This document shows positions 3,036 to 19,047 of a DNA stretch of 20,000 nucleotides, piece by piece. A program made the translations under genes and the position numbers. Position 1 is the stretch's first letter. Each line of letters begins with the position of its first letter. Under the pieces are notes generated by a model. That model did not search any database, was not told where the DNA came from, and saw nothing but the letters and a program-made list of their open reading frames with translations. Source of the DNA: an uncultured virus (IMG/VR IMGVR_UViG_3300028393_000045) (Duplodnaviria > Heunggongvirae > Uroviricota > Caudoviricetes). The stretch is from the IMG/VR virus record IMGVR_UViG_3300028393_000045. One strand, 5' to 3'.

Positions 3036-5696
3036 TTATTCAAACGTGAATAATTGATCAAATGTAGTTTTTGTTCCGGTATTGTCTCTAATGTCCCAAT
3101 CCAGAACTCCTAATAAGTTATCAACCTTTTGGTCAACAATAGTTGCTTCCATTAGGTCGTTATCAAATGGTAAGTCTTTAAACCATTGTGGTATGTGAGT
3201 TTCGTCAGTTGGATAGCCAACAGATGTAAATCCTAATGGATTTGCTTTTAGTTTACAAACAATAGTTTTCATTCCGTCGATTATGCTCATACTGCGATTG
3301 TCGCTATTCATACGCCTCAACGAATTCCAATTGATTGCTGCACGTACATGCCCTGGCATATTAGATCTACCTTTACGTTCCTCAAGTTCGGCAAACTTAG
3401 TTAAGTTGTTTACACGTTTAGGTGTACCTTTTTCCCAAGCCGGCCGCTCTTGAAAACTCAATTTAAAAGTTAACACACGTTGGTAGATTTCTTTCTTCTC
3501 GGCACCTGTTAGTACTGCTAATAATAGTTCACTTAAAAAGTCTTGTACAACCTTAGGAGTATCACTACGCTTTAAGTCCAACCCCATTGCCTTTACCTTG
3601 CCTAACTTACCATTGACATTCTGTTTGTTTCCTTCAAGGTCGACAATAAGAACTGCATAGCGTTTCTTTTTAATAAACAACCCTTTACTAGCTACTAGCT
3701 CTCGGCCGCCAACAATAATACTGCCCATTTCTCTTGGACAATGGAATGCTCTTTCCATGAACCCCGGGAAACTGGTATTAACTTGATCGGCGATGTTATC
3801 GTACAGTTCGATGCACATTTCTTCAGTCCACTTCATATTACCAGCAGCAACGTCATCCTTGATAACTGGCCACGCTGAGAAATAAACTGAGTCTGTGTCA
3901 CCGTAAATAATAGAGTCACCTGTATGATCGTACTTGCCTGTTATGCATTCATTGGTATGTGCATCCATATGTCTAGCAATAACACGCCCAGTTAAGGTAG
4001 TCGATTGGCCAATTCGCTTATCAAAAAACCTACAGCCAGGATTAAGAATAGCGCCGTACAAGCTGTTGAGATTAATCTTTTTAACCAGCTGACGTTTGTC
4101 CCAGAATGCTTTATCTTCATTTGTTTTAGCTTCCTTCTTCTTAGCCTGAAGTTCTTTACGCTCTGCATACCAACGTTCCAGTAATCCGGGCACAATACCT
4201 TTAGCATCGTACTTAAAGATAGTACCATTGGCACTAAGTATCCAAGGTTGATTGCCTTCGAATACTAAACGCCAAACATCAGCGGCAGACATAGTATCAT
4301 TACCGCCGCCCTCCCAGTCAATGGTTATGTCTGTGCCAGGCTCCATATTCATTACACTGGTATATTCTAAGCTACCAAACAAGTTTTCCCAGGCGTCTGC
4401 AAAACTTGAACCTGCATCCATTTTTTCTTTTATGTATTGATCGGTCCTTGTTTGTCTGAGCTGTCCGACAATAGTCTCACATGCCATGTTGAGGGCACGA
4501 ATAGCCGAGGGATAGAGCGAGTTGATGTCGATTGCTCCAATCCATTCGTGCATACCCTTTTTGGGGTAAGCAACGTAGGCACCTGCTGCTTGCGTTTCAC
4601 CTTGTTCATCTTGATTACTCCTATTTTGAACTATTAAACCTTGACGATGTGATTCATTAATAATGGCTTGTTCGGTAACAGCCACAGCCCCCATAGTAGT
4701 AGGAAGCAATACAGTATTGTCGTGTGCCAATTCGTTGGCAAGATCAATAAAGCGAAGTTTCTTATCCAACTTGGCCAACAACATGGTGTCTTGCCTGTTG
4801 TAGTCAATAAATTTAGGAAAATCTTTATTGTATAATTGATCCAATGTACCTTCGTACTGGAGTTTGCGTTCTTCAAGTTCGTACTCGCCGATAGCATCTA
4901 AGCTGTAGCTATGACGTTCTTCATATGTGTATTTGCGATACAGTTGCATATAGTCCATATGCACACGACCAATCAAGTCGAATGTGATGTTTTCAGCACC
5001 AAAACGTTCAAAGGTTCTCTTTTTAGGAAATTGATTCCATAAGCAATAACGACGGGTATCGTCTTTGCTGAGTACTTTGATAGTACGCATTACCATATAC
5101 GGAACGTCAAAGCCCTCTGAGTTCCACCCGCTTAGTATGTCTGCATCCTCAATGAGGTCAAGGAATGTTTTAATCATATCATCTTCGCGAGCAAAGATAA
5201 AACAATTATCAAACTGACTGGCTACTTCTTGTGCAGTATCCCAGCTATAGCTTTTTGGTGGTACTGCTAGTGTAATCAATTTATCAAGCCAAGACAAGTA
5301 AACTGAAATTGCAGTAATGGGATTAAATGGATCTTCGGGTCTGCTGTACCCGCGCACAGGATCAAAGTCCACCTCAATATCAAAAAAGCAAATGTTCAAA
5401 TTAGGTGCATCCTTACCTAAATAGTTTTCTTCTAAACATCTTACCAATGGTTTAATGTCAGATTCCCACAGTTTATTTTTTGGATGTATTTTAATTTCTT
5501 TATAGAACTCTTTGCCGTTACGAGTACTAAACCTGCTGACAGGCGTACCGTATATGGTTGTAAATTTACCTCTAGGGTCGTCGTAGTAGAATAGATAGTT
5601 AGCAGGATATTCTTGATATACCCTGCGACCTTCTACTCGTTCTACTACATGAATCCTGTCGTTCTCTTTATCAAAAAGTGCGTCAACATAACTCAT
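3036..5696 (-). CDS. Family B DNA polymerase with 3'-5' exonuclease (T4 gp43-like)
   Basis: ExoI FFDIEVD, ExoII GWNSEGFDVPY, ExoIII YNRQD; polymerase motifs DINSLYPS, KINLNSLYG, YGDTDS, KKRY; C-terminal TTFDQLFTFE. 886 aa, uninterrupted. Confidence 0.97.
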   Translation of the reverse strand: MSYVDALFDKENDRIHVVERVEGRRVYQEYPANYLFYYDDPRGKFTTIYGTPVSRFSTRNGKEFYKEIKIHPKNKLWESDIKPLVRCLEENYLGKDAPNLNICFFDIEVDFDPVRGYSRPEDPFNPITAISVYLSWLDKLITLAVPPKSYSWDTAQEVASQFDNCFIFAREDDMIKTFLDLIEDADILSGWNSEGFDVPYMVMRTIKVLSKDDTRRYCLWNQFPKKRTFERFGAENITFDLIGRVHMDYMQLYRKYTYEERHSYSLDAIGEYELEERKLQYEGTLDQLYNKDFPKFIDYNRQDTMLLAKLDKKLRFIDLANELAHDNTVLLPTTMGAVAVTEQAIINESHRQGLIVQNRSNQDEQGETQAAGAYVAYPKKGMHEWIGAIDINSLYPSAIRALNMACETIVGQLRQTRTDQYIKEKMDAGSSFADAWENLFGSLEYTSVMNMEPGTDITIDWEGGGNDTMSAADVWRLVFEGNQPWILSANGTIFKYDAKGIVPGLLERWYAERKELQAKKKEAKTNEDKAFWDKRQLVKKINLNSLYGAILNPGCRFFDKRIGQSTTLTGRVIARHMDAHTNECITGKYDHTGDSIIYGDTDSVYFSAWPVIKDDVAAGNMKWTEEMCIELYDNIADQVNTSFPGFMERAFHCPREMGSIIVGGRELVASKGLFIKKKRYAVLIVDLEGNKQNVNGKLGKVKAMGLDLKRSDTPKVVQDFLSELLLAVLTGAEKKEIYQRVLTFKLSFQERPAWEKGTPKRVNNLTKFAELEERKGRSNMPGHVRAAINWNSLRRMNSDNRSMSIIDGMKTIVCKLKANPLGFTSVGYPTDETHIPQWFKDLPFDNDLMEATIVDQKVDNLLGVLDWDIRDNTGTKTTFDQLFTFE

Positions 5697-6415: not shown

Positions 6416-6811
6416 TTAACCGTTAATGTAATTTGGATGCGCTTTATTAAACTTGCGCATAATAATGCCAGCTACGCTATTAGCTTCGTTTTCTTCATCA
6501 CTGCCAGTTTCGCCGCTGTTGGCATTAAGTTGATCTTCTTGGTGTTGTTTAAAATGAACAAGTTCGTGTGCCAGTGTTCTACAAATATCAATTGGATGTC
6601 TGCGATCTATACCCAAACTAATGGTCATATCTGATGGGGAAAAACTACCAAATGTAGGCTGCTCTTGTTGATTCATTGATTTGAAAATGTTAATTTCAGG
6701 TAAGTTAGTTAGTCCTAGTTCTTCCATGGCCAATGGAAGTAAATCCTTTATTGCACTGTATACAACTTGGTAGGATTCCTTTGATTCAACTAGGAATTCA
6801 ACAGCTCTCAT
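6416..6811 (-). CDS. Zincin-type (HExxH) metallopeptidase, ImmA/IrrE-like
   Basis: RTLAHELVHFKQ with downstream ENEAN (third-ligand Glu). The likely start is ATG 6811 (MRAVEFLVES; TAATG overlap with the upstream stop), giving 131 aa, rather than 6850. Confidence 0.8.
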   Translation of the reverse strand: MRAVEFLVESKESYQVVYSAIKDLLPLAMEELGLTNLPEINIFKSMNQQEQPTFGSFSPSDMTISLGIDRRHPIDICRTLAHELVHFKQHQEDQLNANSGETGSDEENEANSVAGIIMRKFNKAHPNYING

Positions 6812-9800
6812 TATTCTTGATCTCGCCAACGTTTCTCTGCAGAGTCCCAATATCTTCCACCAACTACATTTTTGGTTTCTGTTTTAGATTCTTCATATGG
6901 TTGCTCTTGTGTATCAGGCTCATTGGTAGCCGGTACAACTTGATCGTAGTCTTTCATGGTCAGAGTATTACCATTACTACTTAGATTTACTAGTTTTTCT
7001 GCCACATCGTGCAAATCTAAGTCAGTTTTTGCATCTTCTCTAGCAAATTCCATTACACGCAATAGCATAGGAACGTCCATGGTGACAGTATCAGTTGGAT
7101 TAGATGATGCTTCTTCGTCTAAGTTTATTAATTTTAGATAGTGGCGCTGTAGATATTCTTTAGCCCATTTTGCATCATCAAATAATGGACCAACACGCAC
7201 ACCTGAATGATTTAACACTTCAAATCTTTCGCCCTTGCTACCGTCCGGTCTCATGATATTAACTTTACGTACACGCGGTCTGCCAGATTTAATTTCTTCG
7301 CCCTCGGGAATCATACCATTGCGGGCACTGTCTTCTAATTCTAAGTATGCAGCCTTGGCTTTTTGATAGTTGGTCTCGTCACCAATTTTATCGTAATGTT
7401 GCATCAGGTCGTGCAGTCGATCTGCTTCTTTAATATAATCACGCATGCTCATTTTAGCAGGTTCGGCAGATTCGTTTTTATCTTGCCACCAGTAATTACC
7501 GTTAACAGGTTTTGATTTAGGCAACGATGGTGTTTTATTCAACATACGGCTACGTGCAGCTAGCGCCATTTTTTTTAATGTTTCTGGATCTTTGCCACTT
7601 AGATTGGGATGAGTGGAAGACTGGAAACGTTTAATCCATGTGTCTGGGGAATCGTTTGCAGTTAGTTTACCTTCGTCTATTTGTTGTGCTAGTATGCGTT
7701 CGACTTGTTTAATCCAGCTATTTAAATTATTCGATTCAATACCTTGTGCATTGTTTCCAACCATGCCTGCAACAGAATTAATAGCATCACTTACACGATC
7801 AGACCCATATTTTAGTAAATCTGGTCGTTTTTCTGTAATGCCCTTAACGATAGCACTTATAACAGAACTATTCGACACGCCTTCCGCCACATTTGACTTA
7901 TAACTTGGTTGTGTTTGTGCATCGGTTTCTTGAACTGCGGCTACTAATAATTTATTTCCAGCCTCTATTGCTTTTTCTAATGCTTGTTGTCTACTAGTCC
8001 ATATTATACCAGCATCTTTGAACATAGCAGGATTACGAACATTTACAGTAGGATTAGGTAATGGTTTTTCGTTTATAAAATATTCTTTATTGTTGGCATT
8101 TTGTAATATCCACTTGTTTACCTCATACCTGTCTTTTAAGAATTGCAGTTTGCCTTCGCCGCCTTTGCCATCAGTAGGGTCGAGTCCTGACTGCTCTAAC
8201 TGTTGTAAGAATTCTCCTTGATTTTGTGGATAAGCATCCATGTGTTGCACCAGGAGCCAAGCCGCATAAGGAGACGCAGGATATGACCCTTTACCGTCCT
8301 CACCTTTGTCTGCAAGTATAGTTTTTATATTTTGTTCTATATATGGCCAAACTTTGGCTTGGAAACTGGCTCGCTGTGTTGGATCTGCATTCATGCTTTG
8401 ATCTTGATTCATCCAGGCATTTAGAGTTTGCTGAACCTGATCGGGAGTTTGTTCCAAGCCTTCCGCCACACCCTGCTGTCTGCGTTCGTTATGCATATCT
8501 TTCAGTTGTGCTAGTGCTTCTTCTCTGTCGCTCATTCCATCAGCACCGTTGTCTGCTTTGTAATGAAAACAACCCCAGCCGTTTTCGTCTTGATAAATTT
8601 CGCCTACTGGCTTGCCATTTTTTGACTTGATTACTTCTGCGTTAGGGTAAACGGTATCATTGGTGCCTTCCGCCACACCCGGCTCAACAGTACCCATGTA
8701 GTGATGATCGTGTACCTTGTAACCTTTGCGACGATAGTGAGCAATGGCCTTGTTGATTGCTGCATCACGGTCTGCATGTGTTACCCGTATACTCTTCTGT
8801 ACAGTTTCGCCACGCTTGCCGACCATGGGATGATTGGGGTCGGTTACAGTGACACCAATGCGATGTACAGATTTTGTGCTTTCGTCAACTTGATCTCCGT
8901 TGCCAACTAATCTAATTAGATGCCCTTGTTTAAAATATGTTGGGTGATACATTACTACATTAAAGGTAGTATCGTTGTTATAGGAAATCTTTACATCACC
9001 TCCAGCAGCAACAATCTTACTTTTTATATCTTTTGTTGCTTGTGCATTTTTATTGGGCCCATACATAGCATTAGCCATTTGGTCTGCTAATTGTAATAGA
9101 TATTGTTTCTCGTCTCCGCCACCTTCATCTGGTGCAAACTCTTTTAATTTTCTTTGAGCATCAATTTGTGCCAATTGCTTTCTAGCAGACTGATCTCCGG
9201 AGTGGGCGCGATCTATTAGCTTTGCCATGTCAGCTTTTAATTTGGCTATTTTATTATCGATTGAATTAATATTACCTTTGACAACGTCATCTGGTACTGC
9301 GACTTTTGCACTGCCTGGGAAGTCTCTAAATTCGCCTTCGTTCATTACTCTGCTACTTAAATCGTTAATTTGAATTTCAAGATTTGCAATTTGTTTTTGG
9401 TCTTTAACTTTAACTGGATATGGTTTTCCATTCCACTCAAACTGTTGCGCACCTTGTTTAGCGGCTGCAAGATGTGCTTTTGCAAAAGCCAATGCTTCCT
9501 CTGTTGTACCAAATACTTTACTGGCTAGCCATTTAAGAGTTTTGTAAGTTATTACTCCGCCTAATACTGCCATTGCTCCTGTTAGCAAACCTGCACCCAA
9601 AGCTGGAGCAAATAAAGCAATACCGCCACCGGAGCTGGCCATAGTAACACCAGCAGTAGAACCAGCTAATCCTGCCCCTACACCAACCCCTAATGCTTTG
9701 TTTAACTCGGTATCGTGCATAAACGCATCTGCATTTCTTAATTTATTTCCTAGTTCACTTCCTGGAAATAGTGCTTCGTTTACTTCAGACTCGTTCTTAA

Positions 9801-10239
9801 CAAGTCCCATATCTTCAAGGTACTCAACTGCCTTTAATAAATTGGGTGTTGTTTTTTCTGTAGTCTTACCGTTATGCGTAATTCTTAATACATTTGTATC
9901 GCCATCGGTGCTGATAGTAGCAGTAACTTCTGAATTTTCTGGATCTATGTAACTTAATATTTCTTTAAATTTATCTTCTATAGTTTCTTTTTCTTTTTTA
10001 TCAGCGTAAGTTCCGTTTTTACCTCTGATTAAATTGTGTACTTTGCCTTCTTTGTCGGTTCTAGTCATTGCGGCAGGTTTAAGGAATGCAGCATCGTATG
10101 CAACAGCCGTTCCAAATTTCTTTTCCAATGTGGAAAGGTCGTATGCTTTTGCTTCTTTATCTTCGGTTTGAATTGTTTTATTTTTAATCTGACCTAAAAA
10201 TTCACGATCGTCATCGCTGAACATATCTAATACATACAT
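6811..10239 (-). CDS. Large modular protein, probable virion internal polyprotein; includes a DUF6624-like module
   Basis: The likely start is ATG 10239 (MYVLDMF; strong GGAGG RBS), giving 1142 aa. It is a chain of unrelated modules of about 40-200 aa separated by [VILM]-x-E sites (VNE, MNE, LKE, VDE, three VAE, IDE, IPE, LDE). The module at 7892-8457 contains DQ...AAWLLVQH.D...L.DR..VN. Confidence 0.7.
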   Translation of the reverse strand: MYVLDMFSDDDREFLGQIKNKTIQTEDKEAKAYDLSTLEKKFGTAVAYDAAFLKPAAMTRTDKEGKVHNLIRGKNGTYADKKEKETIEDKFKEILSYIDPENSEVTATISTDGDTNVLRITHNGKTTEKTTPNLLKAVEYLEDMGLVKNESEVNEALFPGSELGNKLRNADAFMHDTELNKALGVGVGAGLAGSTAGVTMASSGGGIALFAPALGAGLLTGAMAVLGGVITYKTLKWLASKVFGTTEEALAFAKAHLAAAKQGAQQFEWNGKPYPVKVKDQKQIANLEIQINDLSSRVMNEGEFRDFPGSAKVAVPDDVVKGNINSIDNKIAKLKADMAKLIDRAHSGDQSARKQLAQIDAQRKLKEFAPDEGGGDEKQYLLQLADQMANAMYGPNKNAQATKDIKSKIVAAGGDVKISYNNDTTFNVVMYHPTYFKQGHLIRLVGNGDQVDESTKSVHRIGVTVTDPNHPMVGKRGETVQKSIRVTHADRDAAINKAIAHYRRKGYKVHDHHYMGTVEPGVAEGTNDTVYPNAEVIKSKNGKPVGEIYQDENGWGCFHYKADNGADGMSDREEALAQLKDMHNERRQQGVAEGLEQTPDQVQQTLNAWMNQDQSMNADPTQRASFQAKVWPYIEQNIKTILADKGEDGKGSYPASPYAAWLLVQHMDAYPQNQGEFLQQLEQSGLDPTDGKGGEGKLQFLKDRYEVNKWILQNANNKEYFINEKPLPNPTVNVRNPAMFKDAGIIWTSRQQALEKAIEAGNKLLVAAVQETDAQTQPSYKSNVAEGVSNSSVISAIVKGITEKRPDLLKYGSDRVSDAINSVAGMVGNNAQGIESNNLNSWIKQVERILAQQIDEGKLTANDSPDTWIKRFQSSTHPNLSGKDPETLKKMALAARSRMLNKTPSLPKSKPVNGNYWWQDKNESAEPAKMSMRDYIKEADRLHDLMQHYDKIGDETNYQKAKAAYLELEDSARNGMIPEGEEIKSGRPRVRKVNIMRPDGSKGERFEVLNHSGVRVGPLFDDAKWAKEYLQRHYLKLINLDEEASSNPTDTVTMDVPMLLRVMEFAREDAKTDLDLHDVAEKLVNLSSNGNTLTMKDYDQVVPATNEPDTQEQPYEESKTETKNVVGGRYWDSAEKRWRDQE
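7879..7891 (-). repeat. VAEG junction repeat, copy 1 (TGTGGCGGAAGGC)
   Basis: Plus strand GCCTTCCGCCACA, identical to 13 nt of the copies at 8458 and 8665. Confidence 0.85.
8458..8473 (-). repeat. GVAEG junction repeat, copy 2 (GGGTGTGGCGGAAGGC)
   Basis: 16 nt identical to 8665-8680; 8460-8477 matches 11220-11237 at 17 of 18 positions. Confidence 0.9.
8665..8680 (-). repeat. GVAEG junction repeat, copy 3 (GGGTGTGGCGGAAGGC)
   Basis: Exact 16-nt direct repeat of 8458-8473, 207 nt (69 codons) away and in the same frame. Confidence 0.9.
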
Positions 10240-10240
10240 A

Positions 10241-10780
10241 TTAACCTCCCTGCCCTGGCATTTCTTGTTTTGCTTTGTTTGCAAGTGATGCCAATTGGCT
10301 TTGTGTTAGTCCAGCATTAGCTAACATTTGTGCCATTGCTGCTAACCCTTGTGGATTAATTGGCGGTGTTGGTTTTGGTGTTTGCCCCGGCGTGGAACCA
10401 ACTGTTGTTGTTTTTGGTGCAGTGTTGGCCGCAGTAGTAGGCGGTGTAGTTTGACCAGCAGATGTAGTTGGTGCAGCTTGCCCTGCAGATGCAGACGGTG
10501 TAGTTTGAGCTTGCCCTGCAGATTGCCCTACAGTTCCGACTACACCTACTTCGTTTATACTTCTTACATATTTTTGGTCTTTAAAATATTCAACCAATGA
10601 ATCGACACTATCGTGATAATCGATTCCTGATTCAAGCAAATCATTTACAGATTGTTTAATGAAATGTCTTTCATTCTCGGTTATACCGCCGTATACATTT
10701 TTATCTTCGACAATATCGTTTACACGTACCAGGCCTTCTACAATCCTGTTTAATAGTGTTGATGAAATAGAGTCAATCAT
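10241..10780 (-). CDS. Hypothetical protein with a Thr/Ala/Pro-rich low-complexity region; possible head-associated protein
   Basis: 179 aa with an ATGA overlap with the upstream gene. Several I-x-E sites (IVE, ITE, INE). SAGQA repeats (AGCTTGCCCTGCAGAT at 10475-10490 and 10508-10523). Confidence 0.7.
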   Translation of the reverse strand: MIDSISSTLLNRIVEGLVRVNDIVEDKNVYGGITENERHFIKQSVNDLLESGIDYHDSVDSLVEYFKDQKYVRSINEVGVVGTVGQSAGQAQTTPSASAGQAAPTTSAGQTTPPTTAANTAPKTTTVGSTPGQTPKPTPPINPQGLAAMAQMLANAGLTQSQLASLANKAKQEMPGQGG

Positions 10781-11676
10781 TTGCTGGTCCTTGACTTGGG
10801 ACGGCCACCAAACAATTCACCTGCTTGTTGTCCACCCATATTAGTTGCCATACCACCACTTGAACTAGCACCTGCCGTTGATTCAAATTCTGCATCTGGC
10901 GCATCTACATCGCCTATTTTACTAGAGTTCATTGTGATGCCTTTATATTTAATTTTTAGATTAGAATACATGTTACCACGTTGTCTTAAAAAATTACTTA
11001 ACCATTTGTCGGCCTGTATAATAACTTGTTTTGGCGCGCCTCCCCAATTATATTTTTCTATCATTGGTGTTAGATCAAATTCCTTATACTCACCACCCAT
11101 TAGCATAGATGCCATTAATTTATTTGGATCGGTCTGATCGGCTGCTTTTGCTAACCCAGGTGCCGCAGCAGTAGCAGCGGCAGCACCTGCTCCTTTAAGG
11201 AATCCCCTGCGGCTCATATCTTCCGCCACACCTTGCTCTTTACCCAGGTCTTTCTGACGCAGACTTTTCTTCATAGTGTCAATCTTTTTGCCTGCACCCA
11301 CTTGGTCGGTGTTGGCATCTTTTGCGGCTTGATTATACTTGCGTTTGGCTTGTTTTAGTGCCGAGCCTTCCTCCACAATACCAAGAGTATTCATGTTCTC
11401 GTCGGCAACTTTGTTCTCCATATGGGAACCCAACTCGTACTCTAGCCATTCTTTTACATTGCGTAAGTAGTCATTTGCCAAAGTTATCTTTTCGCTTGCC
11501 CACCCCGGTATGCCATCCTCCTCGCTGATTTTTTTAAGCATTCTATGCAGTTCCATGGCATTTGATGCAGAATGGTAACATTCTTCTCTGGCCATTTGTA
11601 CTTCGTGGTCCATATGCATAGACTCAGCTGCTTGTACAATTGGGTGTTTTTCGGGTATAAAATCTATAGGTTTCAT
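10777..11676 (-). CDS. Modular protein, probable virion internal protein, containing an internal Tat signal peptide
   Basis: 299 aa. N-terminus MKPIDFIPE; junctions GIVEEG and GVAED, then MSRRGFLKGAGAAAATAAAPGLAKA. Preceded by CATAAATA. Confidence 0.75.
   Translation of the reverse strand: MKPIDFIPEKHPIVQAAESMHMDHEVQMAREECYHSASNAMELHRMLKKISEEDGIPGWASEKITLANDYLRNVKEWLEYELGSHMENKVADENMNTLGIVEEGSALKQAKRKYNQAAKDANTDQVGAGKKIDTMKKSLRQKDLGKEQGVAEDMSRRGFLKGAGAAAATAAAPGLAKAADQTDPNKLMASMLMGGEYKEFDLTPMIEKYNWGGAPKQVIIQADKWLSNFLRQRGNMYSNLKIKYKGITMNSSKIGDVDAPDAEFESTAGASSSGGMATNMGGQQAGELFGGRPKSRTSK
11220..11232 (-). repeat. GVAE junction repeat, copy 4 (GGTGTGGCGGAAG)
   Basis: Plus strand CTTCCGCCACACC. 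It lies in a different gene from copies 1-3 but is read in the same codon phase. Confidence 0.85.
11365..11377 (-). repeat. Degenerate junction repeat, copy 5 (TGTGGAGGAAGGC; VEEG)
   Basis: One mismatch to the 13-nt core; 147 nt (49 codons) from copy 4, in frame. Confidence 0.65.
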
Positions 11677-11698
11677 AGTAGTAAATTGGTTAGTAATG

Positions 11699-11706
11699 TA
11701 TTTATG
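11699..11706 (-). promoter_or_regulatory. T4-like late promoter motif (CATAAATA)
   Basis: Intergenic, 22 nt upstream of ATG 11676. The same octamer precedes the genes starting at 13312 and 19093. The T4 gp55 consensus is TATAAATA. Confidence 0.6.
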
Positions 11707-11713
11707 TTACAGT

Positions 11714-13312
11714 TTAATACGCACTGTTGGACTTGATGATAACTTGATCAATTGGTAAACTAGCCACTGAGTTATTAAGACTATTCCAGGAATCAATTCC
11801 TGTATTCTTATTAGGGGTAAACAATACTTTATCGTTTTTAACTTTACCAGTAGCTATTCCCATTGGTTTACCTTTCCACCAGACAACATCGCCGCTTTTA
11901 ACACGCTCTGCTTTATTCAAAAATTGGTCTGGTGGTGTAATGCCTTCTGTTACTTTATTTTCTAACTTATTAAAGAATATTACGATTGCTTGTTTTACAT
12001 CTTCGGCAGCATATAATCTATCATTAGTGATAGCCAATCGTTTAGAAAACAGATCTCCGTCTTCTTTACTTTTAGCATATTCCTTTGCTGCAAGACTAGA
12101 AAAATGTGCTCGCGCTGCATATAGTCTACGTAATTCCATCCATTCTTCTTCGTCTGGCGTGGGTCTCGGATCGTGTTGCAGCAAAGACAATCGCTTCATT
12201 CTTTCTGCATATTTTACCAACTCTACAGCTACTTTTTCTGCAAGGTGACTTTCGTATGGTTTTTCTTGTATAGGGGTATAGTCATTGACATCGTCCCAAT
12301 TTGGATCTACAAGATCGCCTTCGGGATCGAGCTCGGAGCGTGACAAGTATTGAACAAGTTTTTTTGCTAGATTGCTGTTGGTATCAGACATTTTTAAAAA
12401 GGCAAGGCGTCCTGCATTCAGCCCCCTTTCTGCAAATAATCGTGCTAACTCTACTAATTCCCTAGTATCTTTTTCAACTTCGGGATCTGACTCGGGGTCT
12501 AAGAACGTTCTTGTAAATTTTATAATTTCGCTGGCATATTTATAAGGTCTGTAGTCTGTTACACGTTGTTTAAAATCTTCTTCTAAGTTAGTTGCAGCGT
12601 CAACAACTGGGTCATATGGTATTTTATTAAAAATATGTACCAACTCAGGGGTTGCTTGCCCGTATAATTGTGTTAAGAATTCTTTACTGGCACCCTCATC
12701 TTCTCTCACCATGTTCCATAACATCCTGCATTCAGTGCCATGGCTAGCATCGTATGTCTTTCCATTGATATTAACCTGTGCTGGTTTTTCTGCTACAACT
12801 ATTACATAGCTATGTTTGTCTGCTGTGGTTGATTCTGCAATGGATTTAAATGTTAAGAATGGTTTAAGATCACCAACATTTTTACCAGGCGGTATTCTGG
12901 ACTTCTTAGGTGACCCGTCTTTTTTTGGTTTGGGTGTAAATTGTGTATAGACACTATCAACTTCTAGTCGTTGTTTATCTGGTTCGCCCACAGCAAAAAT
13001 GGCTATTGTTTTACTAGGATCAAATCCTAATATTCTTGCATAATCTTGAATTTTGTAAGGTCGATTGGCTTCAACAATACGATCATTATGTACACCTGCG
13101 GCATGCATTAGCTGTACTTTATCAGTAAAGTTAAATGGACTTTTAGGTAGATCTACATTATTACTAGTACCAATGAATACATTATCACGACCAAATTTTC
13201 TTTGCAGTTCGTTAAAAACCGCACCATGCCCTTTATGAAACGGCTGGAACCTTCCTGGGTAAATAACCACAATGTGGGTTGCTTGGGATTCAAAAAGGTC
13301 AAATACAAACAT
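11714..13312 (-). CDS. HxGH nucleotidyltransferase (cytidylyltransferase-like) N-terminal domain fused to additional unknown modules
   Basis: VVIYPGRFQPFHKGH motif followed by SPFNFTDK. N-terminus MFVFDLFES. The C-terminal half is divided by LEE, IQE, LAE and VTE sites. RBS AAGGA. Confidence 0.8.
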   Translation of the reverse strand: MFVFDLFESQATHIVVIYPGRFQPFHKGHGAVFNELQRKFGRDNVFIGTSNNVDLPKSPFNFTDKVQLMHAAGVHNDRIVEANRPYKIQDYARILGFDPSKTIAIFAVGEPDKQRLEVDSVYTQFTPKPKKDGSPKKSRIPPGKNVGDLKPFLTFKSIAESTTADKHSYVIVVAEKPAQVNINGKTYDASHGTECRMLWNMVREDEGASKEFLTQLYGQATPELVHIFNKIPYDPVVDAATNLEEDFKQRVTDYRPYKYASEIIKFTRTFLDPESDPEVEKDTRELVELARLFAERGLNAGRLAFLKMSDTNSNLAKKLVQYLSRSELDPEGDLVDPNWDDVNDYTPIQEKPYESHLAEKVAVELVKYAERMKRLSLLQHDPRPTPDEEEWMELRRLYAARAHFSSLAAKEYAKSKEDGDLFSKRLAITNDRLYAAEDVKQAIVIFFNKLENKVTEGITPPDQFLNKAERVKSGDVVWWKGKPMGIATGKVKNDKVLFTPNKNTGIDSWNSLNNSVASLPIDQVIIKSNSAY

Positions 13313-14273: not shown

Positions 14274-14990
14274 CTATTGATTTTTCTGATTGATTATAAT
14301 CTGATTTACCGACCCAATTAAGGATGGTGCTAACATTTTGAGTATATCTAACATCTTGATGTCATTAAGATATATGAAGCCGCCTTGAAAATATTTATAT
14401 CTATCTGACAGTCTCTCTAATATAAATTTTGATATTTTTATCTCGCTATCTAAATTTTTTATATAATTTACTAGTGCATGTCGATCCTCAAGTTTGATGA
14501 AACCTTCTTTTAAGCGCACCTTATAAGGATGGTCGCTTTCTTTTTTAGTGATAATAAAACCTTGATCTAACAATTTTTTGTCCGAATCAAATTCTAACAA
14601 GGAAATTGAACTTAATCTAGCTTTATGCTCGCTTAAAATTTCATTAGCTACATTATACAAGTAAGATTCAGAATCTGCAAATACAGTGAAAGAATAATAA
14701 CTAATTCTAAATTTTACTTTAACATCAGGTGGTGTTGTATAATATTTGTAAAAGTCTTCTAGTGTTTTTAAACTTGCATTTTGATTTTTGTACCTGACGA
14801 ATCTGTCTGTGTTTCTATAATTAAAAGCCTTCACAGTTGATGGCAACTTATCGGCAGTTTTACAATTAATCAAACATCTAGCACCTTGCAAATTATAAGT
14901 TAAACTGTAACAAAACTCGTTAAAAAATTTCTTCTTAGTATAAAGAAAACGCAGGTCTTGATTTAGTTTACCCCACTCTGATAAATCCAT
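14274..14990 (-). CDS. Hypothetical protein
   Basis: About 238-aa ORF. ATG 14990 (MDLSEW) is preferred over TTG 14999. It overlaps the clpA 3' end; no motif recognised. Confidence 0.7.
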   Translation of the reverse strand: MDLSEWGKLNQDLRFLYTKKKFFNEFCYSLTYNLQGARCLINCKTADKLPSTVKAFNYRNTDRFVRYKNQNASLKTLEDFYKYYTTPPDVKVKFRISYYSFTVFADSESYLYNVANEILSEHKARLSSISLLEFDSDKKLLDQGFIITKKESDHPYKVRLKEGFIKLEDRHALVNYIKNLDSEIKISKFILERLSDRYKYFQGGFIYLNDIKMLDILKMLAPSLIGSVNQIIINQKNQ

Positions 14991-17271
14991 TTTCGTCAAC
15001 TGATGGTACCCCTTCGATTAATAGCTGCATGTTATAGGCAATTACAGTAAAAGTCAAATCTTTTTCCTGGCAATCTACATTAATAACAGATCCGTTTTCT
15101 AAATTCCCAAACAATATTTTTTTACTGATGGGCACTTTAATCAGATCGTTAATTACACGATTCAACGGTCTTGCACCCATTTTCTTATCAAATCCTTTTT
15201 CAACTAATAAGTCAACTGCCTTTTCAGTTAATCGTAATTTAATTTGTCTGTCGGATAGTAAGTCATTGATCTCTGACATAAATTTAGCGACAATCTTTTT
15301 CATGCTAAATTGATCTAGTGTTTTAAACTTACATATAGCATCAAGTCTGTTTCGAAACTCTGGTTTAAAAAATTCTTTAACTGCCTTATCGTCTTCACCT
15401 GTGCGCTCTAACGATTGGCCAAATCCAATAGTATTACGTTCGTTATCGGCAGCACCCAAATTACTGGTCATAATTAAAATTGAGTTACGTGCATCGGCTT
15501 TTTTACCATTGCTACCAGTAATAAATCCTTCATCCATAAATTGCAACAAAATATTTGTTACGTCAGGATGAGCTTTTTCAATCTCATCTAATAGAATAAT
15601 TGAGTTTGGATTTTGTTCTAAAGCACTAATTAATAATCCACTGCCAGCTGCCGAATCTTCATATCCAACATATCCCGGAGGTGCACCAATCAACTTAGCC
15701 ATGCTATGTTTTTCTTGGTACTCACTCATATCGTAACGAACCATCTTCATTGACAAATTAGTTGCAAGTAACTTAGCCAATTCGGTTTTTCCAGTACCAG
15801 TTGGTCCTAAGAATAAAAAGCTACCAATTGGTTTGTTAATTGATTTAATTCCTGCTTTGCTTACAAATATTCTCTCTAACACAGAAGTTACAGCATCTTC
15901 TTGACCGTACAGTCCTTGATTTATATTAATTTCTAAATTAACAAGACTATTGGTGTTATCGCTGCCAATTTGATCAACTGGAATTTTAGTAGCGCGACTC
16001 AATGCTTCAACAATCTGCGATTTACCTAATACAAAGTCTGCATCTTGTTTGATTTGTATTTTTTGTTTAGCACACGCAGTATCCATTAAGTCTATTGCTT
16101 TGTCTGGCAGCTTTTTGTCGGGTTGGTATCTAATGCTATAATCAACCGCAGCGTCAATTGATTCATCTGAAATTTTAATGTTATGGAATTTTTCAAAGTT
16201 TAATCTAATACCTTTAAGTATAAGTTTTGAATCACTTGCACTAGGCTCGTCTACAGTTAATCGTTGAAATCTACGCATTAATGCGCGATCTTTTTCAAAA
16301 CTTTGTACGTATTCATCCCATGTAGTAGATGCAATAACTTTAATCTTGCCTTTAGTTAATGCAGGTTTAATCATGTTACTAAAGTCAACTGAGCTAGACG
16401 ACCCGCCGCCAGCACCGCGCATCTGATGTGCCTCATCAATAAATAGTATAGTTTTTTCTTTAGTTATTAATGCTTTGATAACGTTCTGAAATTTTTCTTC
16501 AAACTCACCTCTATACTTACTTCCAGCCAATAAGCTACCTATATCTAAGTTATACACAGTATATGACTTTAGATATTCTGGTACATTACCGTCTACTATA
16601 TTTTTAGCAAGTCCTTCTGCAAGCATTGTTTTACCAACGCCCGGATCACCAACTAATAAGATATTGGCTTTATTACGTTTAGCCAATATATGGGACATTT
16701 CTGTTAGTTCAAACTCTCGTCCAATAATAGGATCAAGCTCGCCTTTCTTAGCCAGGTTATTCAGATTTGTACAAAACTCATCTAACATTTCTTCGGCACG
16801 TTCTGCATTTATAGTTGGAGAATTTAAATCTAATTCGGTATTAAATTTTTTGTATAGTTCCATTAGGGTAGCACGATCAATTCCGTACTTTAGCATAAAA
16901 TAGAATGCATAGCTATTGGATTCCATTGAAATGCTTAATACTAAGTCAATGATTTTAATACGGTTAGATCCGTGAAACAACACTTGTGTTAGTGCTCTAT
17001 TAAACACACGTTCTAACGTTTGTGTTTTTCTTGGAGTATTTGATTCTTCAACTACCAAATGTGTTTGTGAATTTAAATAATGACTCAGTTCACCCACTAG
17101 GCCATTTACATCAAAATTTAATTTTATCAATATCTTTTTAAAAGGACTGTATTGAAAAATAGCCAATGCTAGGTGTTCTAAAGTTACATATTCATGTTTA
17201 AGTGACTTAGCGGCCTCGCTGGCTTTAAGTATAATTTCTTCAATCTCTGCATTTGGTCTCATTGACGACAT
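14968..17271 (-). CDS. clpA: ATP-dependent Clp protease ATP-binding subunit, ClpA-like (Hsp100, two AAA+ domains)
   Basis: N-domain HEYVTLEHL; NBD1 GDPGVGKT and LFIDEAH; YRGEFEE pore loop; LPDKAIDL; NBD2 GPTGTGKT and LLDEIEKAH; GAPPGYVG; ClpP-docking IGF loop (NTIGFG); GARPL. No ClpB middle domain; 767 aa. Confidence 0.92.
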   Translation of the reverse strand: MSSMRPNAEIEEIILKASEAAKSLKHEYVTLEHLALAIFQYSPFKKILIKLNFDVNGLVGELSHYLNSQTHLVVEESNTPRKTQTLERVFNRALTQVLFHGSNRIKIIDLVLSISMESNSYAFYFMLKYGIDRATLMELYKKFNTELDLNSPTINAERAEEMLDEFCTNLNNLAKKGELDPIIGREFELTEMSHILAKRNKANILLVGDPGVGKTMLAEGLAKNIVDGNVPEYLKSYTVYNLDIGSLLAGSKYRGEFEEKFQNVIKALITKEKTILFIDEAHQMRGAGGGSSSSVDFSNMIKPALTKGKIKVIASTTWDEYVQSFEKDRALMRRFQRLTVDEPSASDSKLILKGIRLNFEKFHNIKISDESIDAAVDYSIRYQPDKKLPDKAIDLMDTACAKQKIQIKQDADFVLGKSQIVEALSRATKIPVDQIGSDNTNSLVNLEININQGLYGQEDAVTSVLERIFVSKAGIKSINKPIGSFLFLGPTGTGKTELAKLLATNLSMKMVRYDMSEYQEKHSMAKLIGAPPGYVGYEDSAAGSGLLISALEQNPNSIILLDEIEKAHPDVTNILLQFMDEGFITGSNGKKADARNSILIMTSNLGAADNERNTIGFGQSLERTGEDDKAVKEFFKPEFRNRLDAICKFKTLDQFSMKKIVAKFMSEINDLLSDRQIKLRLTEKAVDLLVEKGFDKKMGARPLNRVINDLIKVPISKKILFGNLENGSVINVDCQEKDLTFTVIAYNMQLLIEGVPSVDENGFIRVG

Positions 17272-17281
17272 TACAGTTCCT

Positions 17282-18115
17282 TTATGTTAATAAATTTTCT
17301 AATGCTTTATGCTGATCCGATGTAATAGTCGACGGAACAGTTAGTGAAATTTCAACATGCAGATCGCCACGTATAGGTTGATTTACATCCCATAACCCTT
17401 GAGATGGAATTCTAAATTTAGAATTATTTTGTGTACCCGGCGGAATTCTAATTTCAAATTGTGTATGATCTAACCCTGACACCATTGCCTTTGTTCCTAC
17501 TACAGCATCGATACAATTAACACTTATTGTTTTTATTAGATTCAACCCGGCTATTACAAATTCAGGGTGCGGTCTTAATCGTAAATCAACTAATAAGTCC
17601 CCTGGAGGCAAGTTGGCATGAGACGTATCACCTTTTCCTTGATATCTAATTTGCATACCAGTCTGGACTCCTCTAGGGATTTCAATCTCTACAGTTTTAT
17701 TTGATCCATTGGAATTTCGTACATTAATATGATGTGATTGAGTCTCTAATGTTGATTCTAATTCCAATTCAATTCCTACCCTTAGGTCTGCATTTTTAGC
17801 AGGCTGTCCGTGCTGCCTAAAATTAAATCCTCCTGCAAATTGTCGGAATAGATCATCAATTCCACCACCGCCGCCAAAACTAAAATGATGGAAATTGCCA
17901 CCACCTCCGCCTTGCCCGAACATTTTTTGTTGTTCCCATTGGGCACGTTTTTGTGGATCTGTTAGTGTTGAGTATGCTTCCTGAATCTCTTGGAATTTAT
18001 TTTGATCACCGCCCCTGTCTGGGTGATGTTGCATAGCCAATTTTTTATACGCTTTCTTAATCTCGTAATCGCTCGCGTTAGCGTTGACACCTAAAATATT
18101 AAAATAATCAGTCAT
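17282..18115 (-). CDS. DnaJ-class co-chaperone, CbpA-like (J domain, G/F region, C-terminal domains, no zinc finger)
   Basis: DYFNILGV...IKKAYKKLAMQHHPDRGG (HPD motif), G/F-rich linker, PGDLLV, IPPGTQ, GDL. The likely start is ATG 18115 rather than TTG 18130. Confidence 0.92.
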   Translation of the reverse strand: MTDYFNILGVNANASDYEIKKAYKKLAMQHHPDRGGDQNKFQEIQEAYSTLTDPQKRAQWEQQKMFGQGGGGGNFHHFSFGGGGGIDDLFRQFAGGFNFRQHGQPAKNADLRVGIELELESTLETQSHHINVRNSNGSNKTVEIEIPRGVQTGMQIRYQGKGDTSHANLPPGDLLVDLRLRPHPEFVIAGLNLIKTISVNCIDAVVGTKAMVSGLDHTQFEIRIPPGTQNNSKFRIPSQGLWDVNQPIRGDLHVEISLTVPSTITSDQHKALENLLT

Positions 18116-18132
18116 AGTTATATAGTACAAAC

Positions 18133-18456: not shown

Positions 18457-19047
18457 TTATAACATTGGTTGCTGTGGTTGCATTGGTGCTGGTTTGCCAC
18501 CAAACCCTGTTATAACTGTTGCTGTGCCACCAAACCCACCTGCTGCTGGTGTACCAAACCCACCTGCTGCTGGTGTACCAAACCCACCTGCTGCTGGTGT
18601 ACCAAACCCACCTGCTGCTGGTGTACCAAACCCACCCGGTGCAGCAGCGCCAAATCCGCCTCCACCCATAGCAGGTTGATTACTTAGATTGACTTGTCCT
18701 TGTCCCGGTGGAACATATGTTGTTCCTGCGTTGGGTGGCATTTGCATGCCGCCATTGTTAGCACCACCCAATTTTTCTTGTGTGCGTCCATATGCAGCAA
18801 TACCAAGTACGGCGCCCATGGCAATGTGGAACAATCCTGCACCTTGTAATGTCAATGGTTGCCATTGTGAATTAATTGTTCCGTGAACTGTTGCTTGCAG
18901 CAGGCTCCATAGTACGGGAAACAGCATAAAATCACATGTACAAACACCCATGTACATCCAACCCATCATTGGACGCCATTTGCTGTTCATCCAATCTTCT
19001 TTTTTCTTTTCGCTTGCGCTGATTTTTTCTGCTGTTTCGTCTGCCAT
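18457..19047 (-). CDS. Holin-like membrane protein (3TM / GTA-release holin family) with a Gly-rich repeat tail
   Basis: WRPMMGWMY motif, hydrophobic helices and GAVLGIAAYGRTQEK, matching this family's WRP..GW...LG...R..EK pattern. RBS AGGAG. Confidence 0.7.
   Translation of the reverse strand: MADETAEKISASEKKKEDWMNSKWRPMMGWMYMGVCTCDFMLFPVLWSLLQATVHGTINSQWQPLTLQGAGLFHIAMGAVLGIAAYGRTQEKLGGANNGGMQMPPNAGTTYVPPGQGQVNLSNQPAMGGGGFGAAAPGGFGTPAAGGFGTPAAGGFGTPAAGGFGTPAAGGFGGTATVITGFGGKPAPMQPQQPML
18529..18636. repeat. Perfect 24-bp coding tandem repeat, 4.5 copies (GGFGTPAA)
   Basis: ACCAAACCCACCTGCTGCTGGTGT starts at 18529, 18553, 18577 and 18601, with a half copy at 18625. Confidence 0.95.

Follow-up and report, generated by a model that had tools for sequence, protein, structure and literature searches.

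Organisation of the locus

The window analysed here is a stretch of 20,000 nucleotides (nt) from an uncultured virus (IMG/VR record IMGVR_UViG_3300028393_000045), in which the minus strand carries all of the long open reading frames (ORFs) except one. Five adjacent genes on this strand, at positions 6416-13312, form a block that encodes module-built proteins. Two of them, a large polyprotein gene (6811-10239) and a 299-codon gene (10777-11676), contain in-frame copies of one short DNA word that encodes GVAEG and marks the borders between modules. Comparison with close relatives shows that modules are gained, lost and replaced exactly at this word. Its conservation is real at the nucleotide level, and the peptide that it encodes is probably a site at which the chains are cut.

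The large gene lies within a 1157-codon ORF that opens with a TTG at 10284. Its likely start is the ATG at 10237-10239, since the orthologs P0001-P0004 begin at query residue 16, and the likely N-terminus then reads MYVLDMFSDDD... The gene is laid out as a conserved N-terminal part, a variable array of cassettes and a conserved C-terminal part of 355-356 residues, and the borders of homology divide the ORF into at least four modules; neither Pfam nor PHROGs offered a family for the protein. The array in the window holds two units, cassette A (69-codon unit, 8473-8664), which is also present in P0034, P0043, P0044 and P0045, and cassette B (193-codon unit, 7894-8457). The 299-codon gene is made up of a leader with an N-terminal module, a swappable 49-codon cassette (11233-11364) and a module that carries a twin-arginine (Tat) export signal.

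A search with GGTGTGGCGGAAGGC found five copies of the word with 0-3 mismatches each, all of them on the minus strand and thus arranged as direct repeats. Three lie in the 6811-10284 ORF and two in the 10777-11676 ORF, and all five are in frame. PGVAEG (8665-8679), the upstream limit of the cassette array, and QGVAEG (8458-8472) are exact 15-mers with 0 mismatches, and SNVAEG (7879-7893), at the downstream limit, has 2 mismatches, with AAT for GGT. The 299-codon gene carries QGVAED (11218-11232; 2 mismatches) and the degenerate copy GIVEEG (11365-11379; 3 mismatches). From P3 to P1', counted from the putative cut, every copy reads V-[AE]-E and then G or D. The core linker [K/E]-Q-G-V-A-E-G is written AAG CAA GGT GTG GCG GAA GGC. 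Across 200 dinucleotide-preserving shuffles the mean number of copies was 0.18 and the maximum 2, so that none of the 200 reached five. The first-pass annotation had already reported five in-frame copies, codon spacings of 69, 193 and 49 between them, and GTG-GCG-GAA in four copies with GTG-GAG-GAA in the fifth, all of which hold. Its identities between copies (16/16 and 17/18 nt) can be read directly from the sequence, and four of its positions are right, whereas the copy that it had placed at 11220 starts at 11218.

Degenerate junction-like sites also occur on the minus strand. In a neighbouring 532-codon gene, NKVTE/G (11945-11953; a slash marks the putative cut) precedes a C-terminal module of some 75 residues, and GDQVDE/S (8881-8889) and QQIDE/G (7672-7680) lie in the large ORF; a degenerate site at residue 466 falls on a border of homology where modules that are common to other proteins meet. 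In a related genome (L151 2440-4374; G002 178839-180773), the canonical word (QQGVAEG) precedes a C-terminal module of some 120 residues in a 644-codon ORF, which lies just upstream of a 521-amino-acid (aa) ORF that is, by reading of its sequence, likely the large terminase. The system thus extends into the packaging and structural region as well.

Exchange of modules at the word

In a blastn comparison with the related locus L003, the window gave matches at 12000-11365, 11237-8682 and 7891-6001 with identities of 95-98.5% (96% for the match ending at 11365, 95% for the one ending at 8682 and 98.5% for the one resuming at 7891). The two gaps in this alignment are the stretches between word copies, where the two loci have unrelated sequence of different lengths. 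In the 299-codon gene, L003 has an unrelated cassette of about 62 codons instead of the 49-codon one, and where its match resumes, at 11237, it reads QSVTE/A at the position of QGVAE/D, keeping V-x-E and not the word. Furthermore, four orthologs of the large protein share about 525-664 N-terminal and 355-356 C-terminal residues and have different arrays between them (69+193 here, 97+54+65, 142+62+136+69+62+84, and 63+62+53+136+103+53+68), although they are 85-99% identical. At L016, a copy of cassette B with 97% identical DNA stops at 7881 and is followed by a different module. In line with what the first-pass annotation had supposed, modules thus come and go exactly at the repeat in relatives, and the same module turns up in different host genes.

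Cassette B is present in 32 of 46 homologous proteins. Homology to it mostly sets in at query residues 601-615 and stops near 795-808, at the two positions of the word, and in other loci the matches start at 8462-8481. The proteins that host it carry GGACT, GNAT, amidoligase, NT5C, LysM, ParB_N or cytidylyltransferase domains, and the related locus L005 carries a dCMP deaminase. In a sample of 48 proteins, 76 of the 93 module families were singletons, and a single chain (P0043) holds up to ten internal junction sites.

The AlphaFold model of cassette B is all-helical, with a mean predicted local distance difference test (pLDDT) score of 84.8 and a predicted template-modelling (TM) score of 0.83, and the junction residues at both of its ends score below 50; as modelled, the cassette would be an autonomous all-helical domain. 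It had no match in Pfam even at E values up to 5, no usable match in the Atlas, a single match among PDB sequences (E = 0.27) and a best Foldseek E value of 0.78, and the best hits of a VIA-wide structure search (Z = 7.1) were generic helical repeats. By tblastn, cassette B had no match among 50,697 phage records.

In the Logan contigs of four sequencing runs, loose contig ends piled up at 7879, 8457-8478 and 11219-11239, and the depth of the cassette was 2-10 times that of its flanks; both are expected when the same cassette occurs in several contexts in one community. The nearest related record, G001 (109 kilobases (kb); L002 and L018), terminates inside cassette B. This end is probably an assembly break due to cassette B being multi-copy in the community. 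The excised circles or alternative junctions envisaged in the first-pass annotation did not appear, in that no credible excision joints were found in these contigs; a single joint in X6 goes back, with 44 letters on one side.

Conservation of silent sites

Background codon use was taken from ORFs of at least 200 codons in the window and related loci, where GTG accounts for 16% of Val codons, GCG for 7% of Ala codons and GGT for 41% of Gly codons. At 21 non-redundant GVAEG sites, by comparison, GGT was used in 21, GTG in 21 and GCG in 20. Silent codons at these sites therefore do not vary freely, and the counts lie far above background, which bears out the nucleotide-level conservation proposed earlier. 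In G002 (199 kb), a fully degenerate GVAEG pattern matched four times, only on the coding strand, and each match was spelled GGTGTGGCG.

When viral contigs were scanned for KQGVAEG irrespective of codon choice, at least 126 loci and at least 141 sites were detected. Among the matches listed, 138 of 141 lie inside ORFs of at least 60 codons and represent 121 distinct contexts, with 107 different left sides and 115 different right sides; the other three, which all use other codons, are chance matches. Across these 121 contexts the linker codons were AAG in 102, CAA in 117, GGT in 114, GTG in 102, GCG in 106, GAA in 113 and GGC in 89, and the word was spelled alike in at least 91. Conservation is sharply confined to a block of 21 nt, as the 30 bases on each side carry at most 0.4 bit. 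In the distant locus L012, two QESVSE junctions (two sites in one lineage) differ at a silent site, AGT versus AGC.

The junction peptide as a predicted cut site

On its sequence, the junction V-A-E/G fits the Glu-specific cleavage rule of the head proteases of T4-type phages. The proteases of T4, phiKZ and SPN3US cut after Glu, in SPN3US at A-x-E, and the rule places a small or hydrophobic residue at P3 (PMC5694885). We read the junction as a putative cut site because a gp21-type enzyme is encoded by the relatives, because [VIL]-x-E is kept where the rest of the linker changes, because a Tat signal lies behind a junction, and because of the disordered module ends, a second Glu site beyond the word and the leaders of the proteins. 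The related genomes G001 and G002 both contain a T4-type prohead protease (PF03420, Peptidase_S77; E = 3.2e-25, 84.8 bits against a cut-off of 27) and a Gp23-type capsid protein (PF07068; E = 1.2e-80), encoded outside the window in the order protease, scaffold-like ORF, capsid protein. The capsid protein itself has LLE/G and LAE/T close to its N-terminus.

Distant lineages alter the linker yet keep [VIL]-x-E (QGVNEA, QGVTEG, NVAENFADGK, ESVEEA), and by reading of the alignment 28 of the 32 cassette-B homologs have this motif within 10 residues past the end of the module. A second [LIVF]-x-E follows within 8 residues of the word in 23 of 120 listed contexts, compared with 6, 2 and 8 of 120 in later intervals. 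About one fifth of the listed junctions (L025-L150) continue as G-[SNRQ]-L-[NDE]-E-[FLI], a second Glu site similar to the N-terminal leaders, as though the modules, once fused, retained the beginning of a formerly separate gene. These sites recall the extra sites that lie inside the propeptides of SPN3US (PMC5694885).

The capsid-targeting sequence of T4 is MKTYQEFIAE (PMC8442874). Leaders that resemble it in sequence are found here in the 299-codon gene (MKPIDFIPE, 11650-11676, ending in I-P-E), in a small HExxH protein (MRAVEFLVE, 6785-6811) and in the 532-codon gene (MFVFDLFES), and similar ones occur in relatives (MRASEFLTE, MKPSDFLTE, MRYQEIIAE). A strict form of the pattern, M-[KR]-x-x-[DE]-F-[IL]-x-E, matches 3 of the 259 ORFs of G002, two of which belong to this block. 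We rejected MKKAGKKPKQGVAEG as an N-terminal leader, as the ORFs start 30-70 codons further upstream.

The Tat signal of the 299-codon gene (DMSRRGFLKGAGAAAATAAAP..., 11158-11220) begins one residue past the junction Glu. It was recognised by Pfam (PF10518; residues 153-173, E = 2e-06, bit score 27.9, cut-off 22.7), and with E = 6e-07 when the C-terminal part was scanned alone, and it also stands directly behind QSVTE/A in L003. A Tat signal works only at a free N-terminus. An ATG lies two bases past the word ahead of the signal, and in this case only, translation of the Tat module could start internally at that codon.

Neighbouring genes

Between the two polyprotein genes lies a 179-codon gene (10241-10780, minus strand), which opens with MIDSISSTLLNRIVE/G and has a tail of low complexity made of Thr, Pro and Ala; an imperfect tandem repeat of 27-33 nt at 10416-10523 encodes a Thr/Pro/Ala/Gln-rich part of this tail, and the end of the ORF overlaps the TTG start (10284) of the large ORF. 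The 532-codon gene (11714-13312, minus strand) encodes a cytidylyltransferase-like (NMNAT-type) N-terminal domain behind the leader MFVFDLFE/S. Its homologs P0012 and P0042 are cytidylyltransferase-like enzymes fused to GVAEG-bounded cassettes.

Directly downstream of the large polyprotein gene, here and in L003, lies a gene of 131 codons (6416-6811, minus strand) with the motif HELVH at 6554-6568. Its presence qualifies the earlier statement that no protease gene is visible in the window. The protein matches Peptidase_M78 weakly (19.1 bits against a cut-off of 22), and its AlphaFold model (pLDDT 82.7, with residues 1-9 below 50) found abylysin, selecase, jannalysin, Wss1 and IrrE/PprI as the best Foldseek rows (E 7e-3 to 0.1, TM scores 0.4-0.6), suggesting a minimal zincin-like metallopeptidase fold. 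The family has more than 349 members; HExxH is present in all 120 of those listed, and a strict T4-targeting-like leader in 54 of the 120. The zincin-like protein could be either a packaged effector or a candidate alternative protease for the junctions, and it looks like cargo because it has the same leader with its first 9 residues disordered. We rejected the idea that it is a constant partner of the polyproteins, since HExxH occurs in only 2 of 83 ORFs (at least 110 codons) at 11 other polyprotein loci, and neither of the two is this small protein.

Elsewhere in the window, Pfam and PHROGs identified a family-B DNA polymerase (3036-5696) and, on the minus strand, a ClpB-like ATPase of 767 aa with two AAA domains (14968-17271), a DnaJ-like protein of 282 aa (17282-18130) and a holin-like protein (GTA_holin_3TM, 18457-19047). 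The ClpB-like and DnaJ-like chaperone genes thus adjoin each other in a phage genome, and the holin-like gene contains 4.5 perfect 24-nt tandem repeats (18529-18636) that encode GGFGTPAA units.

Source phage and related records

The closest match of the window polymerase is that of a 469-kb Sinorhizobium phage, at 50.9% identity, followed by Atu_ph07 and then by enterobacterial jumbo phages of 350 kb. By blastn, the region 6811-11676 had no match in the same 50,697 phage records. G001, estimated to be 31% complete, shares half of the sampled words of the window and is 100% identical to it along the portion of the large gene that it covers, whereas G002, which is 57% complete, holds the whole locus at 95-98.5% identity. 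In more distant relatives (L005, L009, L010), a polyprotein with cassette B is likewise encoded upstream of the family-B polymerase, at a distance of a few kb; synteny of the locus thus extends to phages with no more than 66-68% identity in their polymerase DNA. All 24 of the sequencing runs listed contain at least part of the stretch, and those with at least half of its words are labelled as freshwater metagenomes. The source of the window is an uncultured freshwater jumbo phage of the T4 superfamily.

Discussion

We give roughly an even chance to the explanation that the junction is a protease-cut linker whose DNA also serves as a short homology for ordinary recombination, and we infer cleavage, packaging and the route of recombination from the features described above. 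On this explanation the modules are joined by a short disordered linker in which one sequence does two jobs. As a peptide, V-x-E/G would be cut by the gp21-type prohead protease of the phage; the T4-type leaders would bring the chains into the prohead, and cutting inside the capsid would then yield separate proteins for delivery along with the DNA, as is the case for Alt and the internal proteins of T4. At the DNA level, the word, identical over 15-21 nt, is the only homology between otherwise unrelated cassettes, so that general recombination between co-infecting relatives would join cassettes at the word and always in frame. Only junctions with the canonical word could make new junctions, while mutated copies would go silent; the canonical spelling would thereby keep spreading, which could account for the frozen silent sites without a dedicated recombinase or selection for evolvability.

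Several points weigh against this explanation. Where contigs join across word copies, the sides of the joints are only 19-24 letters long (19-23 for those from 8472/8477/8478 to 11219/11220), and such joints therefore show repeats, that is the shared word itself, and not excision. GGT-GTG-GCG is altered in 30 of the 121 listed contexts, and some of these are clearly shuffled. In a codon alignment of cassette B from 8 loci, identical four-fold residues used identical codons in 93 of 126 cases (74%) in the word columns versus 913 of 1476 (62%) in the module interior, a control weakened by variant junctions in L004 and L005; as this contrast is modest, the strong argument is the sameness of the word across unrelated contexts and not the comparison with one module family. 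The support from a looser form of the leader pattern, found in 6 of 11 junction-bearing ORFs versus 14 of 68 others, counts the orthologs of the window and L003 twice and has a p value of only 0.026, and the N-terminus of the large protein fits this pattern only loosely. The T4 rule names Leu or Ile at P3, where the junction has Val. Many of the host domains are metabolic enzymes (dCMP deaminase, NT5C, NMNAT-like) and not obvious capsid cargo, and 15-21 nt is short for efficient homologous recombination. Finally, cultured relatives were not found among the 50,697 phage records.

An unlikely alternative is that the linker is never cut, and that the products are true multidomain 'polyvalent' proteins in which GVAEG is a hinge and gene conversion keeps its DNA uniform. 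Phage polyvalent proteins of 2-15 domains are known, some of them packaged unprocessed (PMC5512222), and the linker is disordered in the model. However, the Tat signal would then stand in mid-chain, behind V-x-E, in two orthologs with different junction spellings, where it lacks the free N-terminus that it needs. A hinge would also not require Glu at a fixed place, whereas distant lineages keep [VIL]-x-E in linkers such as QGVNEA, NVAENFADGK and ESVEEA, and a second such site is enriched just past the word.

We think it rather improbable that the junctions are cut in the cytoplasm by another protease, either the adjacent zincin-like protein or a host enzyme, with products that act in the infected cell and would not be cargo of the capsid. 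Many cassettes are metabolic enzymes, a Tat-exported product would make sense in the cell that produces it, zincin peptidases have been proposed to process polyvalent proteins (PMC5512222), and the minimal HExxH protein is encoded directly downstream of the polyprotein gene both here and in L003. The rarity of HExxH at the other polyprotein loci and the cargo-like leader of the zincin, itself disordered, nevertheless speak against such a role for it. Zincins usually prefer a hydrophobic residue at P1', which we also count against it. Glu at P1 is, by contrast, a hallmark of the gp21 family (PMC5694885).

At the level of the DNA, we regard as quite improbable that the 21-nt word, in addition to being a protease signal, is the site of a dedicated machine (a nuclease, a recombinase or template switching) encoded elsewhere, which would recognise it and move cassettes in frame between genes and genomes in the manner of an in-frame integron. 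The confinement of the block to 21 nt between unconserved flanks resembles the recognition site of a protein, the shared spelling in at least 91 of the 121 listed contexts and the differing arrays of orthologs that are 85-99% identical would suit such a system, and only 31% and 57% of the two related genomes could be searched. Yet the word forms no palindrome and lacks paired arms of the attC kind, its copies are all direct repeats, and the contigs of the four runs hold no credible excision joints. Pfam and PHROGs found neither a recombinase nor a homing nuclease among the 15 ORFs of the window, in agreement with the first-pass annotation, which had seen no recombinase gene there. Searches for tyrosine and serine recombinases were also negative in G001 and G002 (109 and 199 kb; 31% and 57% complete), with no match to Phage_integrase (PF00589) or Resolvase, although the control genomes were matched (14 of 14 for PF00589). 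We prefer ordinary recombination in view of these negative searches of the window, G001 and G002, the direct orientation of the copies and the lack of paired arms. Taken together, the first-pass annotation was right about exchange at the word, shared modules and frozen codons, and the cleavage and capsid loading that it proposed gain indirect support from the T4-like leaders and from the Tat signal behind a junction, whereas its integron- or shufflon-like mechanism finds no support in direct repeats that have no palindrome or conserved flank, or among the genes of the window, G001 and G002.

It is very improbable that the frozen spelling serves translation or RNA, with two Shine-Dalgarno-like AAGG elements that pause ribosomes or drive internal starts: AAGGA-type ribosome sites are used here, the word contains cAAGGt and gGAAGGc, and an ATG precedes the Tat signal, but no start codon follows the word in any other case (the next residue is S, L, K, D, A and so on), the spacing to that one ATG is poor, and an element of 4-5 nt would not need 21 fixed bases, so that we rejected internal starts and ribosome sites as the cause of the frozen DNA, save as a local possibility at the Tat module.

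Relation to known systems

The protease-cut linker that we favour has its closest parallel in the internal proteins of T4. IPI, IPII, IPIII and Alt have, like the proteins here, a short N-terminal leader that ends in hydrophobic-x-Glu (PMC8442874), and as here a T4-type prohead protease that cuts after Glu is found with the capsid protein in the same phage (PMC5694885). The T4 proteins, however, are cut once for removal of the leader, whereas up to ten internal sites in a chain would here release unrelated modules; the DNA of the site is frozen here and marks exchange points, and cutting is known there and predicted here. In SPN3US, phiKZ and 201phi2-1, cleavage follows the Glu of A-x-E-type motifs in many packaged proteins, but these are single proteins with propeptides and not arrays of cassettes, and the accessible part of the source describes no shared nucleotide word (PMC5694885).

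Polyvalent proteins (Iyer et al. 2017) are, as here, long chains of unrelated domains that include amidoligase, ParB, GNAT and LysM, and were proposed to be packaged, injected and released by proteolysis (PMC5512222). Embedded zincin- or assemblin-like peptidases were suggested for this release, and neither a uniform junction peptide nor a frozen DNA word is described in the accessible part of that source, in whose main text the word 'linker' occurs 0 times. By Pfam, no embedded peptidase domain was found in the two window polyproteins or in 43 related chains.

In the PeSL cassettes of T4-type phages (Arbiol et al. 2010), short conserved flanks mediate modular shuffling by recombination (PMC2839356). 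PeSLs are, however, intergenic promoter and terminator units that move whole genes by way of mini-circles (PMC2839356), whereas the word described here lies in ORFs, encodes GVAEG and joins domains in frame, and no circles were seen in the contigs of the four runs. PeSLs are defined by a sigma-70-type promoter and a stem-loop terminator that flank whole ORFs (PMC2839356). Integrons and shufflons produce the same outcome, variable arrays of cassettes bounded by a short repeat, but no integrase or Rci-type recombinase was found in the window, G001 or G002, the word has neither attC-like folded sites nor inverted repeats, and the cassettes are parts of one reading frame.

We found no paper that describes this linker in a literature search that did not extend to subscription journals and supplements. 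A query for 'QGVAEG' returned one unrelated fungal paper, a query on jumbo phages, polyproteins and prohead proteases returned nothing on this linker by title or abstract among the matches listed, and the 7 occurrences of 'polyprotein' in the accessible text of PMC9503650 all concern RNA viruses.

Implications

If the protease-cut linker is correct, a large and widespread group of freshwater jumbo phages would build a set of injected or early-acting proteins as polyproteins, and would renew that set by domain swaps at one standard in-frame joint. To our knowledge, the polyprotein strategy, familiar from RNA viruses, has not been described for tailed phages. The junction would also illustrate, in nature, how selection can act on a single sequence both as peptide and as DNA. 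In practical terms, a leader together with V-x-E joints would be a simple criterion by which packaged effectors and their limits could be recognised in metagenomes, and the arrangement would offer a design by which one gene could load several foreign proteins into capsids of the T4 type. The pool of cassettes looks large, judging by the share of singleton families, and mostly has no assigned function; it may thus be a reservoir of candidate host-takeover or counter-defence proteins.

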